Origin: a phage
Direction: 5' to 3' (one strand)
DNA length: 27,839 nt
Assembly: GCA_023859445.1 (NCBI GenBank)
Contig: GCA_023859445.1_4337.1
Shown in pieces: positions 2,259-25,958 of the stretch (position 1 is its first letter; each line of letters opens with the position of its first letter). The notes beneath the pieces were generated by a model. It did no database searches, had not been told where the DNA came from, and saw only the letters and a list, made by a program, of their open reading frames with translations. A program made the position numbers and the translations under genes.

Positions 2259-2491
2259 CCCTCCCATACGGCTGAGATGCTTGCCTTGGGGTTTAAGGAT
2301 AAGTGTATCTAAATCTCATTTAAAGAAGTAACCCACTGAAATATCTACTGTTTCTTAATGTGCCGTAGATTCGCAACCATAAAAATGTAACGATTATTGG
2401 GCAGGCTTAAGGCCCGCCCTTTAGTTACCAAGTAATAAGAATAAAGGCACAACCTTCCCTAAAGAATCACAACGGCAACGTAACTATTCTC

Positions 2492-2521
2492 TTGCACACC
2501 ACAACATAATAGGGTACTATT
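2492..2521 (+). promoter_or_regulatory. Conserved phage promoter, copy 1 (TTGCAC-N17-TACTAT; palindrome AATAGGGTACTATT)
   Basis: -35 2492-2497, -10 2515-2520, palindrome 2508-2521; 35 nt upstream of the 2555 gene. Confidence 0.5.
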
Positions 2522-2554
2522 CACTTATCGAAACGAGACAGAGGAGTGAGGGTT

Positions 2555-2746
2555 ATGTTTAAACGTGGTCAGTTGGTTAAATGCGCCGACGGTGAACACG
2601 GCATAATTGAATTAAAATCTAATTTATTTCCCGGTGAGTACGTAGTGACCGTGCAAAAGGTGAGAGGGGTAAATTCACAAATATACGTAGAAGAGGAGAA
2701 CTTAAAACTCATTGGCAACAATTTTAAATTCAAAGGGGCGAAGTGA
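2555..2746 (+). CDS. Hypothetical small protein (63 aa)
   Basis: ATG 2555 with SD GAGGAG (2541-2546); track ORF 2546-2746 begins at an upstream GTG. Confidence 0.55.
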   Translation: MFKRGQLVKCADGEHGIIELKSNLFPGEYVVTVQKVRGVNSQIYVEEENLKLIGNNFKFKGAK

Positions 2747-2946
2747 TGGAAGAATTATTTGAAGAACTGAAACATCATGATTTCGAGGAAATATATTTCG
2801 TAGCTGAACGCTACGAGGTGCATCTGGCGGACGGTATAACGGTTATTACATCTACCAGCGAGCGAATGTTAAATAGCTTACGAGCAATACGAACGGCATC
2901 GAATCGTGATGCTTGTGCCGACGACTCTGAGGGAGGTTGCCGTTAA
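2743..2946 (+). CDS. Hypothetical small acidic protein (67 aa)
   Basis: ORF track; ATGA overlap with upstream gene. Confidence 0.5.
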   Translation: MMEELFEELKHHDFEEIYFVAERYEVHLADGITVITSTSERMLNSLRAIRTASNRDACADDSEGGCR

Positions 2947-3125
2947 TGCGAATCCGTATAACTGACCGCAGGCTTGTACGTATAACTGACCGCAGGCTTA
3001 TAGATTTCGGTATCTCGGTAGGTGATGTTTTTCCGGCGTTCAGCATCAACCATTATGGTTTTATGATTGAGTACAAATGGTCGTTATTGTTCGTGTATCG
3101 GGATGAATGTGAGGTTCTGGTATGA
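2946..3125 (+). CDS. Hypothetical small protein (59 aa) containing an in-frame tandem repeat
   Basis: ATG 2946 overlapping upstream stop (TAATG), SD GAGGGAGG 2929-2936; encodes RITDRRLV/RITDRRLI from the 24-bp repeat. Confidence 0.4.
   Translation: MRIRITDRRLVRITDRRLIDFGISVGDVFPAFSINHYGFMIEYKWSLLFVYRDECEVLV
2955..3002. repeat. 24-bp tandem direct repeat, two copies (23/24 identical)
   Basis: CGTATAACTGACCGCAGGCTTGTA (2955-2978) and CGTATAACTGACCGCAGGCTTATA (2979-3002). Confidence 0.9.
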
Positions 3126-3277
3126 GAGAAGCATTTGAACGGTGGGCTGTGGTCGAGGGTCTGCCGGTTAACAAGGGTTCAAAGAAAGAGTACCTGAACG
3201 TTAAGACGCGTCTCGCGTGGCGGGCGTGGAAAGCTGGTGTGCAATCCTTGATTGAAAGAGGTGTGAGGTATGGGTGA
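3122..3277 (+). CDS. Hypothetical small protein (51 aa)
   Basis: ATG 3122 overlapping upstream stop (ATGA), SD GAGG upstream; ends TGA 3275-3277, overlapping next start; under the track length cutoff. Confidence 0.4.
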   Translation: MREAFERWAVVEGLPVNKGSKKEYLNVKTRLAWRAWKAGVQSLIERGVRYG

Positions 3278-3470
3278 GTGGATTAAGTGTAGTGAGATGC
3301 TGCCGGGTAATGGGTATACGGATAAAGAGTTCCTGGTGTATGAAACGTTAAATAACGCAGTTCAGCACGATTATTACATAGTTCCTGATGACGGGAGAAA
3401 GCCTTTCTGGAATCACTACGATAAGTACGTGACGCACTGGATGCCGTTACCCGAGCCGCCAGAAGTGTGA
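3270..3470 (+). CDS. DUF551-like phage protein (66 aa)
   Basis: ORF track; C-terminal HWMPLPEPP motif typical of DUF551 small phage proteins (recalled from memory). Confidence 0.6.
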   Translation: MGEWIKCSEMLPGNGYTDKEFLVYETLNNAVQHDYYIVPDDGRKPFWNHYDKYVTHWMPLPEPPEV

Positions 3471-3604
3471 TGCTCAATAGTTTGGGATTTTACTGAGTGA
3501 CTTACGCTGCTACACAGCAGCGTACAACTTTAACTTAGTGTCGTCAAAAGGCGACACTTTCATCAAACGCAACAATCGAAGCGACTATTGCAGGAGATGC
3601 AACA

Positions 3605-3778
3605 ATGATTACTAAAGAACAGGCTGAACGACTAATCACGTTAATCGACACGATGGTTGATGCGAAAACCGATTTAGCAACGGCAACAGAGGAATCCGCT
3701 ACCTGGTCGCTTGAAGAAAGAGAGGCAGAAGCGGAAAGGGAGTTACTGGCGTTCATCGACTCTATAACACACCAATAA
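3605..3778 (+). CDS. Hypothetical small acidic protein (57 aa)
   Basis: ATG 3605 with SD AGGAGA about 8 nt upstream; codon count verified to TAA 3776-3778; not in track. Confidence 0.4.
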   Translation: MITKEQAERLITLIDTMVDAKTDLATATEESATWSLEEREAEAERELLAFIDSITHQ

Positions 3779-3785
3779 AATTTAC

Positions 3786-3815
3786 TTGCACACTAAGATA
3801 GAATAGGCTACTATT
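3786..3815 (+). promoter_or_regulatory. Conserved phage promoter, copy 2 (TTGCAC-N17-TACTAT; palindrome AATAGGCTACTATT)
   Basis: -35 3786-3791, -10 3809-3814, palindrome 3802-3815; near-identical to copy 1 over about 35 bp including downstream AAACGAGA. Confidence 0.5.
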
Positions 3816-3963
3816 CATTTACACAAACGAGAGGAGAGACAGAAGGTGAAAGATTATAGCGAAGTGACTTTAGGTGAGTTGCAGGACGGGTACGAAGATA
3901 TGTGCTACCCGTTCATCTGCGACGGGGATTACAACGGCGGCTATAACGGAGTGAGCGAAGAAT

Positions 3964-4392
3964 ATGAATAACAAAAACGAAGTATTCGAGTACTTGGTAG
4001 CGGCAATGCACCTAACGCTGGACGAACGTAAGGCACACAAGCAACAGTGCGAAGACCTGGCGCATGAGGTGCTGTCACTTAAGAATCAGTTACGTGATGC
4101 GTCAGCGCAGATTAAGGAGCTACATATGGCGCTGGTCAAAGCTACGGGCGACGCGGAGGCGTACAAACTTATCCGCAAACAGGAGCAATCCGGTTGCCGT
4201 AAAGAGGATACCCAGGAATGCGAGCATGATTGGGTGCTAGATGAAAAAGGGGACTACTTCATTTGCGCTAAATGCGGTAAGCAAGAATCGGAATTGAGCG
4301 ATTGCCAACACGCTAATACCGTCGGTTTGCGCAAAGGCTTTGCGCCGGGTTTTACTAAAAAGTGTCTTGATTGCGGGGCTAAACTGAAATGA
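3964..4392 (+). CDS. Coiled-coil protein with C-terminal CxxC...CxxC zinc-ribbon-like motif (142 aa)
   Basis: ORF track; CAKCG and CLDCG pairs near the C-terminus. Confidence 0.55.
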   Translation: MNNKNEVFEYLVAAMHLTLDERKAHKQQCEDLAHEVLSLKNQLRDASAQIKELHMALVKATGDAEAYKLIRKQEQSGCRKEDTQECEHDWVLDEKGDYFICAKCGKQESELSDCQHANTVGLRKGFAPGFTKKCLDCGAKLK

Positions 4393-4592
4393 CCAGCATC
4401 CTTTTTATCTGGGTACTGTCCGCAGGCCAGATGCAACTAGCGGCATCAGAAACGTTTTATTCGATGGAGGCGTGCCAGTCAGCGGCACGCGCCGCAGAGA
4501 ACGCGCACTTCCTGTTTCAGGGCGACAAGCCCAACGATTCGGAGGTACGCGCTATCTGCTCACCTAAGCGACTTGGTAAACAGGAGAAATAA
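4389..4592 (+). CDS. Hypothetical small protein with hydrophobic N-terminus (67 aa)
   Basis: ORF track; ATGA overlap with upstream gene. Confidence 0.45.
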   Translation: MTSILFIWVLSAGQMQLAASETFYSMEACQSAARAAENAHFLFQGDKPNDSEVRAICSPKRLGKQEK

Positions 4593-4885
4593 TGTCGTTA
4601 GCAACTGACATCCTGAAACGAAGCGGCCTTGCGCCGCTGTCGCCGAGAGCGAATACGCGTATACACAAGCGCCGCCGTAATGCACTGTACCCCGAGATTC
4701 AGGCCAGACGCAAAGCGGTCCGCGCCTGTGGATTCCAGAACGGGAAGGCTGTGAATCTCGGTGAGTTCAAAACACAGGAACGTGCAGCTATAGCTAATCG
4801 GTTATTTAATTACTGGAAATCGCTTGGATACGATGATATTCCGACGAAACCACAGAGACGACAATACATCTGGCGGCACAAATAA
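4592..4885 (+). CDS. Hypothetical basic protein (97 aa)
   Basis: ORF track; start overlaps upstream stop; Arg/Lys-rich. Confidence 0.5.
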   Translation: MSLATDILKRSGLAPLSPRANTRIHKRRRNALYPEIQARRKAVRACGFQNGKAVNLGEFKTQERAAIANRLFNYWKSLGYDDIPTKPQRRQYIWRHK

Positions 4886-4915
4886 ACAACTATTAGGATA
4901 ATTCCTACCCGTGGT

Positions 4916-4955
4916 ATCCTCCAGTTACTGCATACTTAATACGCACCTGGAGGAT
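4916..4955 (+). promoter_or_regulatory. Hairpin sequestering the SD of the first lysis gene
   Basis: Perfect 9-bp inverted repeat ATCCTCCAG (4916-4924) / CTGGAGGAT (4947-4955), 22-nt loop; right arm contains SD GGAGGA (4949-4954), 6 nt before TTG 4961. Confidence 0.45.
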
Positions 4956-4960
4956 TCATC

Positions 4961-5269
4961 TTGGATAAATTTACTGAAACAGTGACGGGGTGGCTTCTCG
5001 CTGCCGCACTGGTCGGTGGATTGGTCGGGCTAAGACAACATAAAAAGTCTATATCCGGGCCGATTGACGGACTGGTATTTCTTCTCACCGGCTTCGCGTG
5101 TGCTATTTTCGGTGCACCTCTTGCCGCTCAATGGTTCGGTATTACCGGTGAGCGTGAGATAGCTGGCCTCGGATTCATCATTGCCATTCTCTGGATGCCT
5201 ATCTATTCCCGCCTTTCTGGCATCGTATCGGGTGGCGATATTGCCCGCCCAGGAGGACCGAATGACTGA
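4961..5269 (+). CDS. Putative holin, three predicted TM segments (102 aa from TTG; alternative GTG at 4982)
   Basis: ORF track; three hydrophobic stretches and charged C-terminus; directly upstream of the endolysin; non-ATG start. Confidence 0.55.
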   Translation: MDKFTETVTGWLLAAALVGGLVGLRQHKKSISGPIDGLVFLLTGFACAIFGAPLAAQWFGITGEREIAGLGFIIAILWMPIYSRLSGIVSGGDIARPGGPND

Positions 5270-5534
5270 GCTATTCTGGTTTGTCGTAATGCTGGCAATG
5301 GGCGCTTCGTCCCTGTTCAACGTGTATAATGAACGCGTGGACGACGGGCTGTTCGGGCGTGTTCTCTATATCCTGACTGCTATCGTCTGTGCCGCCGGAT
5401 GTATTCACCTGTTACAGGGCAGCATGTCGCCTACGCTGCCTGAGACATTAATCACATTAGTCGCGCTGCGCCAGATTCGCCAGGCGTGGCTGTCATACGG
5501 AGGGCATAAGCGTGTCTCGAAACATTTCAGATAA
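5262..5534 (+). CDS. Second small membrane protein of the lysis cassette, two TM segments (90 aa; holin or antiholin candidate)
   Basis: ATG 5262 with SD AGGAGG (5251-5256), overlapping the upstream stop; two hydrophobic segments. Confidence 0.5.
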   Translation: MTELFWFVVMLAMGASSLFNVYNERVDDGLFGRVLYILTAIVCAAGCIHLLQGSMSPTLPETLITLVALRQIRQAWLSYGGHKRVSKHFR

Positions 5535-6000
5535 TGGATTGCATTTTACCGCCGCGTTCGAGGGGTTCCGTGGAACCGCGTATCGTGCTACGTCGAACGA
5601 GAAGTACCTGACTATTGGCTACGGGCACTACGGACCGGACGTAACCCCGGGTAAGACCATCACCCCGGGGCAAGGCCTCCTGTTACTGAATCGTGATATG
5701 GCTAAGGCCGTAGCTGCGGTTGACGCAGCAGCACACCATTCATTGACACAGGCACAGTTCGACGCAGTGTGCGACCTGGTGTATAACGCGGGTGCCGGTG
5801 TGATTGCGGCTACTACTGGCACAGGTAAGGCACTGCGTTCTGGTGACGTCACGACTCTGCGGGCTAAGCTGGCGCTGTTCATCAACCAGAACGGCAAACC
5901 GATACTTGGACTGCGTCGTCGTACCGCCGGTCGTCTGGCGCTGTTCGACGGTAAACCGTGGCAGGAGGCTGAGGCTATCGGGCGCGCGGTGAAAGGTTGA
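5512..6000 (+). CDS. Endolysin, GH24 phage lysozyme (P22 gp19 / T4 E-like)
   Basis: ORF track; GTG start with SD GGAGGG (5499-5504); conserved N-terminal pattern FEGFRGTAYRATSNEKYLTIGYGHYG and C-terminal RR..ALF recalled from GH24 lysozymes. Confidence 0.85.
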   Translation: MSRNISDNGLHFTAAFEGFRGTAYRATSNEKYLTIGYGHYGPDVTPGKTITPGQGLLLLNRDMAKAVAAVDAAAHHSLTQAQFDAVCDLVYNAGAGVIAATTGTGKALRSGDVTTLRAKLALFINQNGKPILGLRRRTAGRLALFDGKPWQEAEAIGRAVKG

Positions 6001-6064
6001 CACCTGAGACTAATCCGACGATACTTAAATCACCTCCTGTTCCATACCTCTGCTCTCCAGTTTT

Positions 6065-6097
6065 ATCCCGGCCCTGACCCAGCCGGGATTTTTTTTA
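6065..6097 (+). terminator. Intrinsic terminator after the lysis cassette
   Basis: Stem TCCCGGC/GCCGGGA (6066-6072 / 6082-6088), 9-nt loop, followed by 8 T. Confidence 0.7.
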
Positions 6098-6118
6098 TCT
6101 ATTTTCTGCAATGACTAG

Positions 6119-6147
6119 TTGACTATTACCTACGACCCTATTATATT
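6119..6147 (+). promoter_or_regulatory. Candidate sigma70 promoter (TTGACT-17-TATATT)
   Basis: -35 6119-6124, -10 6142-6147; about 35 nt upstream of the 6181 gene. Confidence 0.45.
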
Positions 6148-6180
6148 TACTCCATCGACAACGAGAACGGAGTAGAGAAG

Positions 6181-6429
6181 ATGAGTAACGTACAGACAAT
6201 CGCAATAACCGAGGAACTTGAAGCCAAATGTATCGCATGGACTATGGGTAATGACCCGGTTGCTATGCGTAAATTTCCAATGAAAATCACAGACATCGAA
6301 GCATTCAAAGATGCACAACTGATGGCACGCATCGCCGTTAGTAACCTGAGCAATAGCATCCCTGCGGACGCGTTCTGGTTCGCTGCAATGCAGACCCTGA
6401 AGGCCGCTTATGCAGGAGAGAAGAAATGA
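6181..6429 (+). CDS. Hypothetical protein (82 aa)
   Basis: ORF track; SD GGAG upstream. Confidence 0.5.
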   Translation: MSNVQTIAITEELEAKCIAWTMGNDPVAMRKFPMKITDIEAFKDAQLMARIAVSNLSNSIPADAFWFAAMQTLKAAYAGEKK

Positions 6430-6623
6430 AAGTTAAAGCCGCTAAAATTCTCTGGTTAGCCGCCCTTGACTATGTGACAGAGGGTAAAGTGTATGATGTA
6501 TACAACCCGACAGCTACTGGTTTCGGTTATATAGACTCCGACGACGACTGCTGTATTTTCATAGACTTTGGTAACGATGAAGGTGATGGCTTCCACGGCG
6601 TTAAATGGGAGATTGTAGAATGA
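6426..6623 (+). CDS. Hypothetical acidic protein (65 aa)
   Basis: ORF track; ATGA overlap. Confidence 0.5.
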   Translation: MKVKAAKILWLAALDYVTEGKVYDVYNPTATGFGYIDSDDDCCIFIDFGNDEGDGFHGVKWEIVE

Positions 6624-6778
6624 GCGAACAAGGTCAAGTAAGCCAACCACTACGGGTAGGCCGTAAAGTCAGCCACACCCCGTTCCCGACACGCGAGGAA
6701 CTGATGAAACGTAACAGTTTCCCTGGGCCGGACAAGAACAAGTATCTCAATCGCATGTGGGGAGAGCGTAAAGAATGA
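6620..6778 (+). CDS. Hypothetical small protein (52 aa)
   Basis: ATG 6620 overlapping upstream stop (ATGA); codons counted to TGA 6776-6778; below track cutoff. Confidence 0.4.
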   Translation: MSEQGQVSQPLRVGRKVSHTPFPTREELMKRNSFPGPDKNKYLNRMWGERKE

Positions 6779-6948
6779 CTGACCGCGAATACGAGAAGGC
6801 ATGCGTAGAGTCGGCGCTAGGTATGTACGCTATTGAAGAGTGCGACAAGACGATTGCCGAATTAGAAAAGGCGTTATCTGTGGTACAGGAGCATCGTCGT
6901 GAATTGATTAACCGCTTCAACCTGAACAAAGGTGACACCAATGCCTAA
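6775..6948 (+). CDS. Hypothetical small protein (57 aa)
   Basis: ATG 6775 overlapping upstream stop (ATGA); codons counted to TAA 6946-6948. Confidence 0.4.
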   Translation: MTDREYEKACVESALGMYAIEECDKTIAELEKALSVVQEHRRELINRFNLNKGDTNA

Positions 6949-7231
6949 AATCACAATCGCGTCACTTGAGCGTCGTATTCTGGTCCTTGAGTCAGAGAAA
7001 CAGACGTTAGGCGGGCAACTGTCAATTAACGGTGAGTTTCAACTGGAGGCGTTTAAGGAGTTACTGGCTATTAAGACGCAAGAACCGAACGTGTACGCGG
7101 GGTTGTTCGTCGGTGAAGACAGTTCTTCGCTGGCTTATTACAACACGGCAACCGCAGCTTCAAAGGATGGGGCTGATGTGATAATCCCGCTGTACGACAA
7201 TGTTGTCGGACCAGAAGATGAAAGCGCCTGA
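6941..7231 (+). CDS. Hypothetical protein (96 aa)
   Basis: ATG 6941 in frame with track ORF 6932-7231; overlaps the upstream gene end. Confidence 0.5.
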   Translation: MPKITIASLERRILVLESEKQTLGGQLSINGEFQLEAFKELLAIKTQEPNVYAGLFVGEDSSSLAYYNTATAASKDGADVIIPLYDNVVGPEDESA

Positions 7232-7400
7232 ACCGGTAGTTATTGATGGCGTCCTGTGGAAACCATACTCGGTTAACCACATCGACGCCGACGGGAAGAA
7301 GTTTAGCTTCTACATTTTTGCAATTAGCCGTGAGCACGCCGCTTGCGTGGTTTCCGATATACGAGAAACGGCGTGGCTCGGTGATGAGATAGTGGGGTGA
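7218..7400 (+). CDS. Hypothetical small protein (60 aa)
   Basis: In-frame ATG 7218 within track ORF 7200-7400. Confidence 0.4.
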   Translation: MKAPEPVVIDGVLWKPYSVNHIDADGKKFSFYIFAISREHAACVVSDIRETAWLGDEIVG

Positions 7401-7404
7401 GAGT

Positions 7405-7488
7405 ATGAGTCTCGAGGTGGTTATCGGTCTGGTTGGTCTTAGTTACTTCGTTGGGCTGTTGGTTGGATTTCTGTGGGGTAGATACTAA
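7405..7488 (+). CDS. Tiny hydrophobic peptide (27 aa, single predicted TM)
   Basis: ATG 7405, SD GGTGAGAG upstream; encodes MSLEVVIGLVGLSYFVGLLVGFLWGRY; TAA 7486-7488 overlaps next ATG. Confidence 0.3.
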   Translation: MSLEVVIGLVGLSYFVGLLVGFLWGRY

Positions 7489-7658
7489 TGTTCAGCGACA
7501 TCAACGCGGCAATCGAAGAAGCAATCTGGCGTCGCTACAACGGCGAGCAGCAGCGGCACTTCTGCCTGGTACAACGCGGTAACATGATTGCTGTGGTACA
7601 GGACCGTGATAATAAATATCCGAATGCGATGTGGACAACGAGGAATTTTTTAGGATGA
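7488..7658 (+). CDS. Hypothetical small protein (56 aa)
   Basis: ATG 7488 (TAATG overlap); codons counted to TGA 7656-7658. Confidence 0.4.
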   Translation: MFSDINAAIEEAIWRRYNGEQQRHFCLVQRGNMIAVVQDRDNKYPNAMWTTRNFLG

Positions 7659-7891
7659 TTACCAGCATTCCGAACCTGATTAAAGAATTTGGCACGATGG
7701 CCGAGACATGCCGACAAACCGGCATCAACGAAATGACGATTGCGAAGTACAGCAAAGACGTCGATTGCGAGCGCCACGTAATTTATAACAATCGTCTGAT
7801 GACGCACGTTAAGACAAGCCCGGTGTTATTCACGCGCCGGGGTATTACTAAAACAGAGCAACGTATTGCTAAAGAGGGGAGTGGGGAATGA
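7655..7891 (+). CDS. Small putative DNA-binding protein (78 aa)
   Basis: ATG 7655 in frame with track ORF 7631-7891, ATGA overlap; helix-turn-helix-like segment CRQTGINEMTIAKYSKD. Confidence 0.45.
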   Translation: MITSIPNLIKEFGTMAETCRQTGINEMTIAKYSKDVDCERHVIYNNRLMTHVKTSPVLFTRRGITKTEQRIAKEGSGE

Positions 7892-8046
7892 TTAGTATTC
7901 TGGAGTTCATCGACAACCAAGTTTGGTACGAGCCAGAGTTAAATAAGTATTCAGTTAATGGGAAAATATTTCGGCGCAAAGGCCAGGCAGAGCGTTACGC
8001 AGCTAAACTATACCGTCAGCTTGTCAAGGATGGTTTCTTCAAATGA
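7888..8046 (+). CDS. Hypothetical small protein (52 aa)
   Basis: ATG 7888 (ATGA overlap); codons counted to TGA 8044-8046. Confidence 0.4.
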   Translation: MISILEFIDNQVWYEPELNKYSVNGKIFRRKGQAERYAAKLYRQLVKDGFFK

Positions 8047-8144
8047 GACTACTAATCATCCCTAACGCCTGGGCCATTCCCGTAGCTAACGACCATTACG
8101 GCGGCGATGGTAAAAGAGCACCACGCCACGGCCCATACAACTGA
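8043..8144 (+). CDS. Hypothetical tiny protein (33 aa)
   Basis: ATG 8043 (ATGA overlap); ends TGA 8142-8144 just before a terminator hairpin. Confidence 0.3.
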   Translation: MRLLIIPNAWAIPVANDHYGGDGKRAPRHGPYN

Positions 8145-8148
8145 TACA

Positions 8149-8169
8149 AGCCCTCTACCGAGGGCTTTT
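8149..8169 (+). terminator. Intrinsic terminator-like hairpin ending the small-ORF block
   Basis: Stem AGCCCTC/GAGGGCT (8149-8155 / 8160-8166), loop TACC, then TTT. Confidence 0.5.
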
Positions 8170-8206
8170 CTGTACATCCTGCCCAATCACCCTATATAAT
8201 CCCTTT

Positions 8207-8248
8207 AGACGCGTAGGGCGCGTCTGGTGCGCTCTGATGGTCAGACGC
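8207..8248. promoter_or_regulatory. Cluster of three AGACGCG/CGCGTCT elements in alternating orientation upstream of terS
   Basis: AGACGCG 8207-8213, CGCGTCT 8219-8225 (perfect 7-bp IR, 5-nt loop), CAGACGC 8242-8248; possible -10 TATAAT at 8195-8200 just upstream. Confidence 0.4.
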
Positions 8249-8265
8249 ATATGCAAGGGGATTAT

Positions 8266-8814
8266 ATGAAGCTGAAACTCAAGCAGCCATCGCCAGAGGT
8301 GGTGCAAGCTGCGCATGAAGAAGCTGTTAGCGCAAACCGTCGCCGTAAACGACCGCGCGGTAAACAGAGCCTTTATCAATCGTCCCGTAATTCCGCCGCG
8401 TTGTGGGACCCGGACTATTGCGACGAATTAATTCGTTTCTTCGACCGCACGTCATGGGAGGCTATGCCGACAGGAGCGCACGGAGACTACAAAGCAGTCA
8501 TTGCGGATAAACCACCATCACTGGCTCGCTTCGCCTTACACATCGGTGTAACTATCCCGATTATTAAGCTGTGGCTGCGTGAGATTCCCGCATTTGCAGA
8601 AGCCTATGAAACAGCACAGGCGCTGGAAGAGGCATATTTCACTGAGACAGGGGCCGCGGGCATCTCTGCTACGTTCTCCGCAGCTAAACTGGGCCTCGGT
8701 AAAGAGAAACCAGTCGAATCCACCGAAGAAACGGCACCGACTGAGATTATTTTTAGTGTTGCAGAGCCTGTAGGTAAAATTGTAACAACGAATATGGGTG
8801 AGGTAGAGGAATGA
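8266..8814 (+). CDS. Terminase small subunit (putative), 182 aa
   Basis: ATG 8266 with SD AAGGGGA; immediately upstream of and overlapping the large subunit; basic N-terminal region; assignment by position. Confidence 0.6.
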   Translation: MKLKLKQPSPEVVQAAHEEAVSANRRRKRPRGKQSLYQSSRNSAALWDPDYCDELIRFFDRTSWEAMPTGAHGDYKAVIADKPPSLARFALHIGVTIPIIKLWLREIPAFAEAYETAQALEEAYFTETGAAGISATFSAAKLGLGKEKPVESTEETAPTEIIFSVAEPVGKIVTTNMGEVEE

Positions 8815-13171: not shown

Positions 13172-13273
13172 TCAAAGTTCACCATTCCCGCTATCTGCGT
13201 CCTCGACCCCGCTAACAGCCCACACAAACAATCCTAAATTAACCAGTAACACAAATGAAATTGCTACCATCAT
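13172..13273 (-). CDS. Small single-pass membrane peptide (33 aa: MMVAISFVLLVNLGLFVWAVSGVEDADSGNGEL)
   Basis: Minus-strand ATGATG at 13273/13270, SD GGAGG 5 nt upstream, own copy of the conserved promoter upstream and the bidirectional terminator downstream; hydrophobic core with acidic tail. Confidence 0.5.
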   Translation of the reverse strand: MMVAISFVLLVNLGLFVWAVSGVEDADSGNGEL

Positions 13274-13298: not shown

Positions 13299-13328
13299 AA
13301 TAGTACCCTATTATGTTGGTGTCTGCAA
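13299..13328 (-). promoter_or_regulatory. Conserved phage promoter, copy 3 (TTGCAG-N17-TACTAT, minus strand)
   Basis: -35 complement of 13323-13328, -10 complement of 13300-13305; palindrome AATAGTACCCTATT at 13299-13312. Confidence 0.5.
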
Positions 13329-13647: not shown

Positions 13648-14034
13648 ATGAATCTTAAAGCAACTGTCGTAGCGGGAGCATGTTTCATCATCCTGGCTTA
13701 CGCACACGGCATCTACCAGTATCGCAGCGGCTGGAACGGAGGCCGGGCGAATCTCGTTTCGCAGCAACAGCAGAAAGCACAGGCTGAGCTTGTGAAGAAA
13801 ACACAACGGCAGCAGCAGGATGAATCAAAGGCCGCAGCCGCCGATAACGAAGGCAAGACGAAATCAGAGGTGATCACCCGTGAAGTCGTTAAGTACATTA
13901 AAACGCCTGGCCGCAGCGTGTGCACTTTTGACCCTGAGCGCGTGCAGCTCAAGTCCCGCGCCGTCGCAAACGCCAATTCCATCCCCGGATACGACGATGA
14001 TGCAGCCGCCGTGCAAACTGGCACTGCCAAGTAA
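13648..14034 (+). CDS. Rz: Inner-membrane spanin (Rz-like i-spanin), 128 aa
   Basis: ORF track; N-terminal TM segment, then Gln/Lys/Glu-rich predicted coiled coil; contains an embedded lipoprotein gene in the +1 frame. Confidence 0.7.
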   Translation: MNLKATVVAGACFIILAYAHGIYQYRSGWNGGRANLVSQQQQKAQAELVKKTQRQQQDESKAAAADNEGKTKSEVITREVVKYIKTPGRSVCTFDPERVQLKSRAVANANSIPGYDDDAAAVQTGTAK

Positions 14035-15881: not shown

Positions 15882-16049
15882 GTGGAAATTAAATATGTAC
15901 CAATGCCGATTACCATCGAGCAGAAGCGAGAATATAACCGTCGGGGGTTCCGTGTAGTAGATGCTCGTTTCGCACCAGAAGGTGCCGTGGTAGAATCGGC
16001 TAAAGAAGAGACACCGCGCCGCCAGCGCCGGGCGAAATCAGAGGAATAA
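15882..16049 (+). CDS. Small basic protein (55 aa; GTG start, in-frame ATG at 15903)
   Basis: SD AGGAG 15869-15873; codons counted to TAA 16047-16049; below track cutoff. Confidence 0.35.
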   Translation: MEIKYVPMPITIEQKREYNRRGFRVVDARFAPEGAVVESAKEETPRRQRRAKSEE

Positions 16050-21849: not shown

Positions 21850-22176
21850 CTATTTACTTTCCACTCCCGCCGCCCAAGCTAGAGAGACGATTTGTAAGCG
21901 AGTAGCCACCAATGCGCTGCTGTAGCCTGGTGATTTCATGTCCACAGAACTCATGACAAGGCCTGTTACAAGGTCGAAGCTAACCCCTGCTGCTCCTGCT
22001 GAATACGCGGCCTCACATTCTTTAATAACCGCATTTTTAAACATTTTTTGCGCGGCTACAGGGGCGCTTTCTATTAAACCCGCAGTTATTAATGGGGTTT
22101 CAGAATAAATCTGCTCACAAGTGGAACCTACCGCAGTAAAAGATATGAAACCTAAAGCTAAGATTAATGTACGCAT
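21850..22176 (-). CDS. Small secreted/periplasmic protein with N-terminal signal peptide (108 aa)
   Basis: ORF track; MRTLILALGFISFTAVGSTCEQ looks like a cleavable signal peptide (no canonical lipobox); SD AAGGAA; first gene after conserved promoter copy 4. Confidence 0.5.
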   Translation of the reverse strand: MRTLILALGFISFTAVGSTCEQIYSETPLITAGLIESAPVAAQKMFKNAVIKECEAAYSAGAAGVSFDLVTGLVMSSVDMKSPGYSSALVATRLQIVSLAWAAGVESK

Positions 22177-22217: not shown

Positions 22218-22247
22218 AATAGTACCCTATTATATTTGGGTGCGCAA
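22218..22247 (-). promoter_or_regulatory. Conserved phage promoter, copy 4 (TTGCGC-N17-TACTAT, minus strand)
   Basis: -35 complement of 22242-22247, -10 complement of 22219-22224, palindrome AATAGTACCCTATT 22218-22231; drives the minus-strand accessory operon. Confidence 0.5.
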
Positions 22248-25903: not shown

Positions 25904-25923
25904 ACCAACCTCGCCCTTGTTTT

Positions 25924-25958
25924 AATAGCATACTATTCAACCATATGGTATCTGTCAA
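25924..25958 (-). promoter_or_regulatory. Promoter for the endonuclease-like gene (TTGACA-17-TAGTAT) carrying the palindrome AATAGCATACTATT
   Basis: -35 complement of 25953-25958, -10 complement of 25930-25935; palindrome 25924-25937 (copy 5 of the family). Confidence 0.5.

Follow-up and report, generated by a model that had tools for sequence, protein, structure and literature searches.

Two arrays of small genes in a K1G-like phage genome

A 27,839-nucleotide stretch of phage DNA (contig GCA_023859445.1_4337.1 of the NCBI GenBank assembly GCA_023859445.1; hereafter the window) contains, on its plus strand, two arrays of very small and tightly packed open reading frames (ORFs), numbered here g01–g10 (positions 2555–4885) and g11–g21 (positions 6181–8144). 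Sequence comparison indicates that these frames are real protein genes under purifying selection, encoding proteins of 27–142 amino acids, and that the arrays are nothing out of the ordinary for a known phage genus, most of their genes being already annotated. The modestly new item is a conserved, unannotated membrane peptide of 27–30 amino acids, encoded by g17, in a hot-swappable slot of the second array.

In a megablast search of GenBank phages, positions 2400–8300 were found to be 92–94% identical to the Escherichia phages MirsaeidiM_Esher4, K1G and fTaEco01 over 80–89% of the query, and matched 420 records, most of them from Kagunavirus and Jerseyvirus (Guernseyvirinae). Because of this high identity to K1G-type phages, and of the dominance of these two genera among the matches, sequence similarity identifies the window as part of the genome of a K1G-like Escherichia coli siphophage, in the genus Kagunavirus, subfamily Guernseyvirinae. 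The gene order is the same as in annotated relatives and is syntenic with the Kagunavirus backbone: a divergent control region is followed by the first small-gene array, a class II holin, a class I holin, an endolysin, the second array, terS, terL and the head genes. For the analyses below I assembled a comparison set of 37 related loci, namely five GenBank loci and 32 IMG/VR contigs retrieved through g18, and a per-base conservation profile was made over 34 loci.

Gene junctions and operon-like units

All nine ORFs below 60 codons that were listed in a preliminary description of this DNA are open. They are found at 3122–3277 (51 amino acids), 3605–3778 (57), 6620–6778 (52), 6775–6948 (57), 7405–7488 (27), 7488–7658 (56), 7888–8046 (52), 8043–8144 (33) and, in the head-gene block, 15882–16049 (55, with a GTG start). 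One further gene of this size class, g07 (3846–3971, 41 amino acids, GTG start), was absent from that list. The stop/start junctions are also as claimed, with overlaps of 1 nucleotide (TGATG, TAATG), 4 nucleotides (ATGA), 8 nucleotides and 14 nucleotides, the last between g15 and g16 when g16 is started at 7218. The view of two continuous chains requires adjustment: the genes of 2555–4885 do overlap, but are split by gaps at 3471–3604 (containing two hairpins) and 3779–3845 (containing a promoter), and those of 6181–8144 nearly all overlap, except g16 and g17, which are 4 nucleotides apart.

I propose that the genes are organized in three operon-like units. The first would consist of g01–g05 and then g06, behind a phage-type promoter at ∼2493–2527; the second would comprise g07–g10, running into the two holin genes and the endolysin gene, from a promoter at ∼3787–3821 to a terminator at 6065–6097; and the third would span g11–g21, from a sigma-70-like promoter at 6119–6147 to a hairpin at 8148–8172, just before terS. 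Overlaps of 1–14 nucleotides are found at 16 of the 18 junctions within these units, the exceptions being the 134-nucleotide gap between g05 and g06 and the 4-nucleotide gap between g16 and g17.

Stop/start overlaps combined with internal Shine-Dalgarno (SD) sites are the classic layout for translational coupling. The genes of the arrays have this geometry, as they overlap or abut stop-to-start (ATGA, TAATG, or overlaps of 8–14 nucleotides) and each SD lies inside the preceding gene, and with such packing ribosomes finishing one gene could re-initiate on the next. The proposal that these are translationally coupled small genes is therefore well founded as regards the coding genes, their overlaps and their internal SD sites, while coupling itself is inferred from this geometry.

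The small frames as protein-coding genes

The chain of 11 ORFs at 6181–8144 was not reached in any of 300 shuffles (mean 3.35, maximum 10), and the real minus strand yields a chain of 3. For the 26 proposed starts, the upstream sequence forms an anti-SD duplex with a mean predicted energy of −7.4 kcal/mol (range −3.2 to −12.1), compared with −2.5 kcal/mol at 176 other ATG/GTG codons of the region (Mann–Whitney p = 6e-14), and every listed small ORF falls within the best 0–9% of these control codons.

Conservation of the reading frames and of synteny in related genomes, which had been named beforehand as a check, was then assessed, and both are conserved. Frames are intact in 29 of 30 relatives for g04, 9/9 for g06, 12/12 for g07, 29/29 for g09, 6/6 for g12, 35/36 for g13, 32/36 for g14, 36/36 for g16, 17/18 for g17, 37/37 for g18, 6/6 for g20 and 26/27 for g21. 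The ratio of non-synonymous to synonymous polymorphism (pN/pS; pooled Nei-Gojobori, annotated frame) is 0.21 for g04, 0.25 for g06, 0.11 for g07, 0.17 for g13, 0.17 for g17, 0.04 for g18 and 0.13 for g21. When the same alignments are read in the +1 and +2 frames, the values for these seven genes are mostly about 1–4 (range 0.67–4.6). The holins and endolysin, used as positive controls, have values of 0.08–0.13.

It could be argued that the smallest frames, g17 (27 amino acids), g21 (33) and g20 (52), are chance open frames or non-coding spacers, as they lie under common gene-caller thresholds; g17 has no PHROG or Pfam match, nor any annotation in the records checked, its slot is empty in one third of relatives, and the variants of g20 are too few for a selection test. 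The evidence for each of them makes this very improbable. For g17, the pN/pS of 0.17 is computed over 13 DNA haplotypes with many synonymous changes (1.09 and 2.18 in the shifted frames), stop codons fill both other frames throughout the segment, the gene has its own SD, and two alleles with different ends both keep the frame. For g21, the pN/pS of 0.13 is obtained over 22 haplotypes, and the protein matches a PHROG family over its full length. For g20, a confident compact fold is predicted, with structural relatives at 29–39% identity in unrelated phages. I also considered antisense ORFs as the true genes, but rejected them: the long minus-strand frames are broken in 7–10 of about 35 haplotypes, while the sense genes are kept intact.

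PHROG families are matched by all the genes but g12 and g17, in many cases over the full length and with E values of 1e-25 to 1e-42; all of these families are in the category 'unknown function'. Pfam identifies DUF551 (g05), DUF7438 (g06) and DUF2737 (g13), as well as a sub-threshold Phage_NinH match (g19). For nearly all the small genes, coding sequences of the same size are annotated as hypothetical proteins in fTaEco01, Bas73 and fBC-Eco01, and an exact-sequence look-up showed that 8 of 10 queried proteins are already public with GenBank accessions. The description of these ORFs as missed therefore applies to the earlier gene track, with its 60-codon cut-off, to g17, and in part to g07 and g21 in sparse records such as the K1G RefSeq entry; the others are annotated in relatives.

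The corresponding Kagunavirus arrays (fTaEco01 TE1_049-072, Bas73_0056-0081, fBC-Eco01 gp57-78, and K1H ORF9) contain the same genes, in the same order and with the same sizes and overlaps, and their core members are 90–100% identical in protein sequence to those of the window. The window differs from them in its combination of cassettes (g12, allele A of g14, the C-terminal half of g15, the 27-amino-acid form of g17, and g20). None of the Kagunavirus records checked annotates g17.

Genes of the first array

The first array opens with three variable genes. Both g01 (2555–2746, 63 amino acids, phrog_12538, pN/pS 0.34) and g02 (2746–2946, 66 amino acids) possess conserved termini, with a hypervariable centre in the former and a variable one in the latter, while g03 (2946–3125, 59 amino acids, phrog_30395 at 1.6e-37) is a variable cassette. 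A 24-nucleotide tandem duplication at 2955–3002 (plus strand) gives g03 the repeat RITDRRLV/RITDRRLI, and is present as a single copy in some relatives.

The core gene g04 (3122–3277; phrog_15836 at 1.4e-34) has an ATGA overlap and an SD of −6.3 kcal/mol. Its pN/pS in the shifted frames is 1.8 and 1.65, and its exact sequence is present in GenBank (e.g., QNO11916.1). It is followed by g05 (3270–3470, 66 amino acids, pN/pS 0.09), a DUF551 domain protein (PF04448; 46.6 bits for a cut-off of 22, E 6.3e-12). The possibility that g04 and g05 are one frameshifted DUF551 protein was set aside, since g05 has its own SD and the two genes are separately conserved. Beyond the hairpins lies g06 (3605–3778), a variable cassette encoding a DUF7438 protein (PF24219, full-length, 49.9 bits for a cut-off of 25, E 4.3e-13; phrog_653), whose exact sequence is present in GenBank as fTaEco01 TE1_054.

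The second unit starts with g07 (3846–3971; phrog_35344 at 1.9e-28; SD −9.1 kcal/mol). The larger g08 (3964–4392, 142 amino acids, phrog_6094) has a conserved coiled-coil N-terminal half and a variable, cysteine-rich C-terminal half that is zinc-ribbon-like, based on weak Zn-ribbon hints in Pfam. The two last genes, g09 (4389–4592, 67 amino acids, phrog_3766, pN/pS 0.10) and g10 (4592–4885, 97 amino acids, phrog_9632, pN/pS 0.13), are both core. The N-terminus of g09 is hydrophobic (Kyte-Doolittle mean of 1.37 over residues 1–19) and starts with a signal-like stretch, MTSILFIWVLSAGQ; the protein also has two conserved cysteines, and its gene is located two genes 5' of the holins. The g09 product may be exported or membrane-anchored.

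Genes of the second array

In g11 (6181–6429, 82 amino acids, pN/pS 0.09) the N-terminal 30 residues are variable and the C-terminal part is core, with phrog_2180 aligning over residues 29–82. The next gene, g12 (6426–6623, 65 amino acids), is a variable cassette present in 6 of the 37 loci, for which no match was found in PHROG or Pfam. The core gene g13 (6620–6778) encodes a DUF2737 protein (PF10930; 38.9 bits for a cut-off of 25, E 8.2e-10; phrog_4684, full length), with its exact sequence found in NCBI as 'DUF2737 family protein'. In g14 (6775–6948, phrog_1402; exact sequence in GenBank as JSSK01_06) conserved termini flank a centre that falls in at least five allele classes, and in g15 (6941–7231, 96 amino acids) a conserved N-terminal region of 42 residues is followed by a swappable C-terminal half; phrog_9023 and phrog_10200 span residues 1–50 only of the latter protein.

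The core gene g16 (7218–7400, 60 amino acids, pN/pS 0.08) could also be started at 7200, but 7218 is preferred because, in the longer frame from 7200, the alignment with phrog_10509 begins only at residue 7. The most constrained of the core small genes is g18 (7488–7658, phrog_5407), the family of which is restricted to Kagunavirus-like phages. An AlphaFold2 model of g18 was left unused, as its predicted local distance difference test (pLDDT) score was 62 and the family is too narrow. A NinH-like helix-turn-helix protein is encoded by the core gene g19 (7655–7891, 78 amino acids, phrog_268, pN/pS 0.08), annotated as NinH in relatives; its match to Pfam Phage_NinH covers 50 of the 60 profile positions with an E of 5.5e-5, and falls below the gathering threshold (23.4 vs 29.8 bits). 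The variable cassette g20 (7888–8046, phrog_22059 at 7e-42) is present in 6 of the 37 loci. Its AlphaFold2 model (pLDDT 92.8) consists of a helix, three strands and a helix (alpha-beta3-alpha), a fold tentatively likened to that of AP2 domains, and the BFVD matches are small uncharacterised proteins of phages GAP31, SSE121, 9NA and Ro157lw (E 4e-4 to 5e-3). The array is closed by the core gene g21 (8043–8144), with a full-length match to phrog_32259 at 2.6e-16, annotated as a 102-nucleotide coding sequence in fTaEco01 and Bas73.

Mosaic structure of the arrays

The 34-locus profile separates core blocks, found in nearly all loci, from variable blocks shared by only 3–15 loci. The core blocks are g04, g09, g10, the lysis genes, the C-terminal part of g11, g13, residues 1–42 of g15, g16, g18, g19 and g21. 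The variable ones are the centres of g01, g02 and g14, as well as g03, g06, g07, the C-terminal half of g08, the N-terminal part of g11, g12, the C-terminal half of g15, g17 and g20. Transitions between the two coincide with gene junctions or lie close to them, and the sequence at the junctions itself stays conserved.

This is also seen in the allele series of g01, g02 and g14, where the N- and C-termini are conserved and the centres fall to 40–60% identity or less. Between alleles whose centres diverge, the 30–45 nucleotides at the ends are mostly 82–100% identical, with a third-position identity of 0.76–1.00; nucleotide identity next to the junctions is 100% and 94% for g02, 92% at the 3' end of g14 and 82–83% for g01. 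The 5' end of g14 is an exception (67% identity, 0.49 at third positions). This pattern of terminal identity, which extends to third positions, points to exchange guided by the junctions, through recombination near them, rather than to constraint on the proteins alone. Natural deletion fusions were also identified, g16::g18 in Salmonella phage CTH7 and g14::g18. Such fusions, together with the empty state of the g17 slot in 12 of 37 loci, argue that parts of the array are dispensable.

A predicted membrane peptide in a variable slot

The 27-amino-acid product of g17 (7405–7488; MSLEVVIGLVGLSYFVGLLVGFLWGRY) is a predicted single-pass membrane peptide, preceded by an SD of −6.8 kcal/mol. It contains one membrane-spanning hydrophobic helix, with a Kyte-Doolittle mean of 2.44 over 19 residues, and a basic C-terminal end; this, combined with the selection on its reading frame described above, is what is expected of a small membrane protein. 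A tblastn search found g17 in 65 phage records. It is without annotation in all records inspected, and most of the 65 matches have no feature at all under them; where features are listed, the two that were inspected are, in phiWAO78-1, an antisense ORF (gp79) and, in SZH-1, the end of an adjacent gene that overlaps the match. Two main alleles exist: the 27-residue form closes in a TAATG junction with g18, and the 30-residue, K1G-type form, MSLEVVIGLVAAGYFIGVLIGFMWGRDSVQ, overlaps a g18 with a GTG start by 11 nucleotides.

The slot between g16 and g18 is highly variable. It is empty, with a spacer of 2–4 nucleotides, in 12 of the 37 loci, and occupied by the 27-amino-acid peptide in 11, by the 30-amino-acid peptide in 6 (jointly with a DUF3850/ASCH protein in four of these), by a 22-amino-acid variant in one, by the DUF3850/ASCH protein alone in 3, and by a coiled-coil protein of ∼80 amino acids with a C-terminal transmembrane (TM) anchor in 4 (L014, L017, L021 and L028). 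The DUF3850/ASCH-type protein (72–76 amino acids; in L002, L003, L020, L030, L033, L035 and L036) is PUA-like and belongs to a PHROG family labeled 'RNA-binding protein'. On the basis of these comparisons, I consider g17 to be a real, dispensable small membrane-protein gene, overlooked by annotation pipelines because of its short length.

The ∼80-residue occupant ends in a TM segment, SILIGVAVGMLVTWGIGY, directly against the g18 start, and hydropathy scores both this anchor and g17 as TM. This raises the question of whether g17 derives from a longer slot gene, as the decaying remnant of its C-terminal membrane anchor, with the coiled-coil protein as candidate parent. I regard such an origin as quite unlikely, as g17 has its own ATG and SD, is kept in 65 phage records, shows purifying selection and occurs in two forms, of 27 and 30 amino acids, that are both maintained, while the likeness between the two TM segments is weak and could be convergent.

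Several other candidates were examined and discarded. A role as an antiholin partner linked to the holin type was rejected, as the state of the slot is not associated with the holin allele. An apparent 'Rosetta stone' fusion of g17 and g18, in an 86-amino-acid database entry, turned out to be g18 extended upstream in a different frame, with no peptide fusion. The segment is also not unusual as a structured RNA (minimum free energy (MFE) z = +0.8), and an Rfam search of the whole window found nothing.

Small single-pass membrane peptides of fewer than 50 amino acids, in bacteria and phages, either target membrane proteins or keep superinfecting phage out. The g17 peptide is similar to these in its length of 27–30 residues, its single hydrophobic helix, its basic C-terminal end and its accessory nature, but has no sequence relation to any described family, and the likeness, drawn from general knowledge, is a lead. 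It is conceivable, though doubtful, that g17 is an expressed, functional accessory protein with a target in the host membrane, through which it could, for example, prevent superinfection, set the timing of lysis or block a membrane-bound defence. The design of the arrays, with conserved junctions and variable centres, would in that case amount to a built-in system for exchanging cassettes of such host-interaction factors.

Interpretation of the arrays

The explanation that I favour, with a probability of about 0.88, is that the small genes of the region are ordinary accessory genes of a K1G-like Kagunavirus (Guernseyvirinae), arranged in three operon-like units. The arrays would be a mosaic, composed of a core set found in nearly all relatives (g04, g09, g10, g13, g16, g18, g19 and g21) and of swappable cassettes or centres (g01–g03, g06, g07, g12, g14, the C-terminal half of g15, g17 and g20). 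The recognisable pieces, namely the NinH-like helix-turn-helix, DUF551, the AP2-like fold and the zinc-ribbon-like tail, point to nucleic-acid or regulatory binding, whereas g17 and the N-terminus of g09 look membrane-associated. By analogy, my best guess is that the small genes modulate host or phage physiology and are dispensable, like the nin and exo-xis genes of lambdoid phages.

The ORFs of these lambdoid regions (NinH, Ea22, orf60a-73) are short, closely packed and for the most part dispensable. In both cases small, tightly packed ORFs have overlapping stop and start codons, the NinH-like helix-turn-helix and the DUF2737 and DUF551 domains are shared, and there is mosaic exchange among relatives. 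The Ea22 variants also possess conserved ends with swappable C-terminal domains (PMC10834534), as do genes of the window arrays. In contrast, the position differs, the window arrays being located before the lysis cassette and between endolysin and terS, and the lambdoid regions between the replication genes and the antiterminator gene. The NinH match of the window is below the Pfam gathering score, and the related Kagunavirus fBC-Eco01 has no lysogeny genes reported (PMC9825357).

A number of points weigh against this interpretation. Translational coupling is deduced from the overlaps and internal SD sites, and some small genes may have a specific host-directed role. At g20 and g12 variants are too few to show selection, the pN/pS of 0.43 for g12 being from few variants. 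The promoter calls are consensus matches, and the terminator rule of the scan missed both terminators that are called here. The sigma-70 scan overall was not enriched relative to shuffles, and the support for the promoter at 6119–6147 is therefore its position, its conservation and its annotation in fBC-Eco01. Finally, the sole Kagunavirus RNA-seq study is coarse, with 57 genes annotated (PMC12645636).

Arrays of this type were suggested in the preliminary description to be where host-takeover and anti-defence functions reside. On this view, the small proteins would inhibit defences or switch off host functions, and an arms race would account for the variable cassettes. Hypervariable centres and cassette turnover are the pattern of counter-defence loci in other phages, and the arrays combine high cassette turnover with hypervariable gene centres between conserved ends; their genes are moreover small, accessory and dispensable. 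The DUF551 domain is portable, and also occurs in Ea22 of Stx phages, in its V2 variant (PMC10834534), and in the prophage protein YfdS (PMC4776307), both linked to host physiology.

Nonetheless, I found no positive support for such roles. The matched families are all of 'unknown function' or DUFs, the NinH match is sub-threshold, and no homology to any family of known takeover or anti-defence role was identified in PHROG, Pfam, NCBIfam and four PDB sequence searches (g04, g05, g10 and g19), no dedicated anti-defence library having been searched; the NCBIfam and PDB searches gave no meaningful matches at all. The BASEL phenotyping reports high sensitivity of Kagunavirus isolates to restriction-modification systems and a variable response to Old (PMC11990801). 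The second array is flanked by the lysis genes and terS, and in an RNA-seq time course of the Kagunavirus K1B4 the NinH gene belongs to a 'middle' class with lysozyme and structural genes, only four genes peaking early (PMC12645636), whereas takeover genes would be expected in an immediate-early position. In addition, junction-guided recombination explains the mosaic breakpoints equally well. I therefore do not think that the arrays are a dedicated anti-defence island, and retain a takeover or anti-defence role as an unlikely option, because functions in host interaction would fit with the high turnover of cassettes.

Since the small frames are real genes, annotation of the window should include them, with g07 (41 amino acids) and g17 (27 amino acids) also listed. 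A conserved membrane peptide goes unseen in every Kagunavirus record inspected, hidden by length cut-offs of at least 30 codons. Members of this genus serve in phage therapy and as a chassis for synthetic biology, and the map of core and swappable blocks indicates likely dispensable or exchangeable parts of a therapeutic phage genome of 41–44 kb. Current understanding of phage biology is left unchanged by these results.

Lysis cassette and head-block gene

The lysis cassette located between the two arrays consists of a class II holin (4961–5269), a class I holin (5262–5534) and an endolysin (5512–6000), on the plus strand and assigned from the annotation of relatives. Upstream of it, a conserved hairpin at 4916–4955 (plus strand) belongs to a fold of −22 kcal/mol (z −3.95), in which the upstream sequence UCCUCCAG pairs with the SD region, CUGGAGGA, of the class II holin gene (TTG start, 4961). 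It may be involved in translational control of lysis timing. The cassette itself is without a spanin gene; a 128-amino-acid protein with an N-terminal TM segment, annotated as 'putative spanin' in fTaEco01, is encoded in the distant head-gene block (13648–14034, plus strand).

The 55-amino-acid gene of the head block (15882–16049, plus strand) is located between the major capsid and head–tail connector genes. It has an SD of −7.3 kcal/mol, matches phrog_16180 at 1.8e-34 and is already annotated, as K1H ORF9. Its counterpart in Enterobacter phage phiEap-2 shows 69% nucleotide identity, with all indels in-frame, and the two products share the N-terminal motif PITIxxKxEYxRxGFRVxDARF.

Predicted promoters, terminators and RNA structures

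A 16-nucleotide core, ATAATAGGGTACTATT, was identified inside a promoter-like element, TTGCnn-N17-TACTAT, with a conserved spacer, ATAATAGGG. Copies are found at 2506–2521 and 3800–3815 (plus strand), 13299–13314 and 22218–22233 (minus strand) and, weakly, 25922–25937 (plus strand), and this count of 4–5 in the window was matched by none of 100 shuffles. The first two copies lie 30–45 nucleotides 5' of g01 and g07: that of the first unit (2493–2527, TTGCAC-N17-TACTAT) is conserved in about 26–29 of 34 loci, and that of the second unit, before g07–g10 and the lysis genes (3787–3821, two mismatches in the motif), in about 29. The 22218 copy precedes a minus-strand operon starting at 22176. The same consensus is reported as seven 'phage promoters', predicted with PHIRE, in fBC-Eco01 (PMC9825357). 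Labeling these as promoters of a phage RNA polymerase is doubtful, because this phage is without an annotated RNA polymerase; the element may be a promoter for the host RNA polymerase with a binding site for a phage regulator.

The 13299 copy precedes a minus-strand micro-ORF in the head block. This ORF (13172–13273, directly 3' of the promoter copy) encodes 33 residues, MMVAISFVLLVNLGLFVWAVSGVEDADSGNGEL, that are hydrophobic (Kyte-Doolittle mean of 2.43), has a GGAGG SD, and runs antisense to the head block, with a structural gene on one side and the spanin-like gene on the other. Relatives share the promoter and the SD, but their sequence does not conserve the ORF body.

The two stem-loops after g05 (3503–3524 and 3537–3558, plus strand) have MFEs of −14 and −13.3 kcal/mol (z −3.9 and −5.3). 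The segment 3476–3520 is conserved in about 27–30 of 34 loci, and 3524–3559 in fewer (15–22); they are likely transcript end or processing signals. After the endolysin gene, a predicted intrinsic terminator (6065–6097, plus strand) combines an 8-bp GC stem with U8 (MFE −13.8 kcal/mol), is conserved in about 30–33 of 34 loci and is annotated as a terminator in fBC-Eco01. The sigma-70-type promoter before g11–g21 (6119–6147, plus strand; TTGACT-17-TATATT, 10/12 match) corresponds to a 'host promoter' in the fBC-Eco01 annotation and is conserved in about 26–34 of 34 loci, the lowest values being at 6128–6139. The third unit is closed by a terminator-like hairpin (8148–8172, plus strand; MFE −13.5 kcal/mol, z −4.5), immediately 5' of the terS promoter and gene, conserved in about 32–34 of 34 loci and with an fBC-Eco01 terminator at the same place.

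Finally, upstream of the first array, the segment 2170–2430 (plus strand) contains a strong sigma-70 promoter (TTGAAA-18-TATAAT, 11/12), followed by an inverted repeat of ∼15 bp at 2227–2258 and a GC-rich hairpin at 2400–2420, with no convincing ORF between these elements. It is present in 1–7 of 34 loci, and could correspond to a short non-coding transcript or leader.

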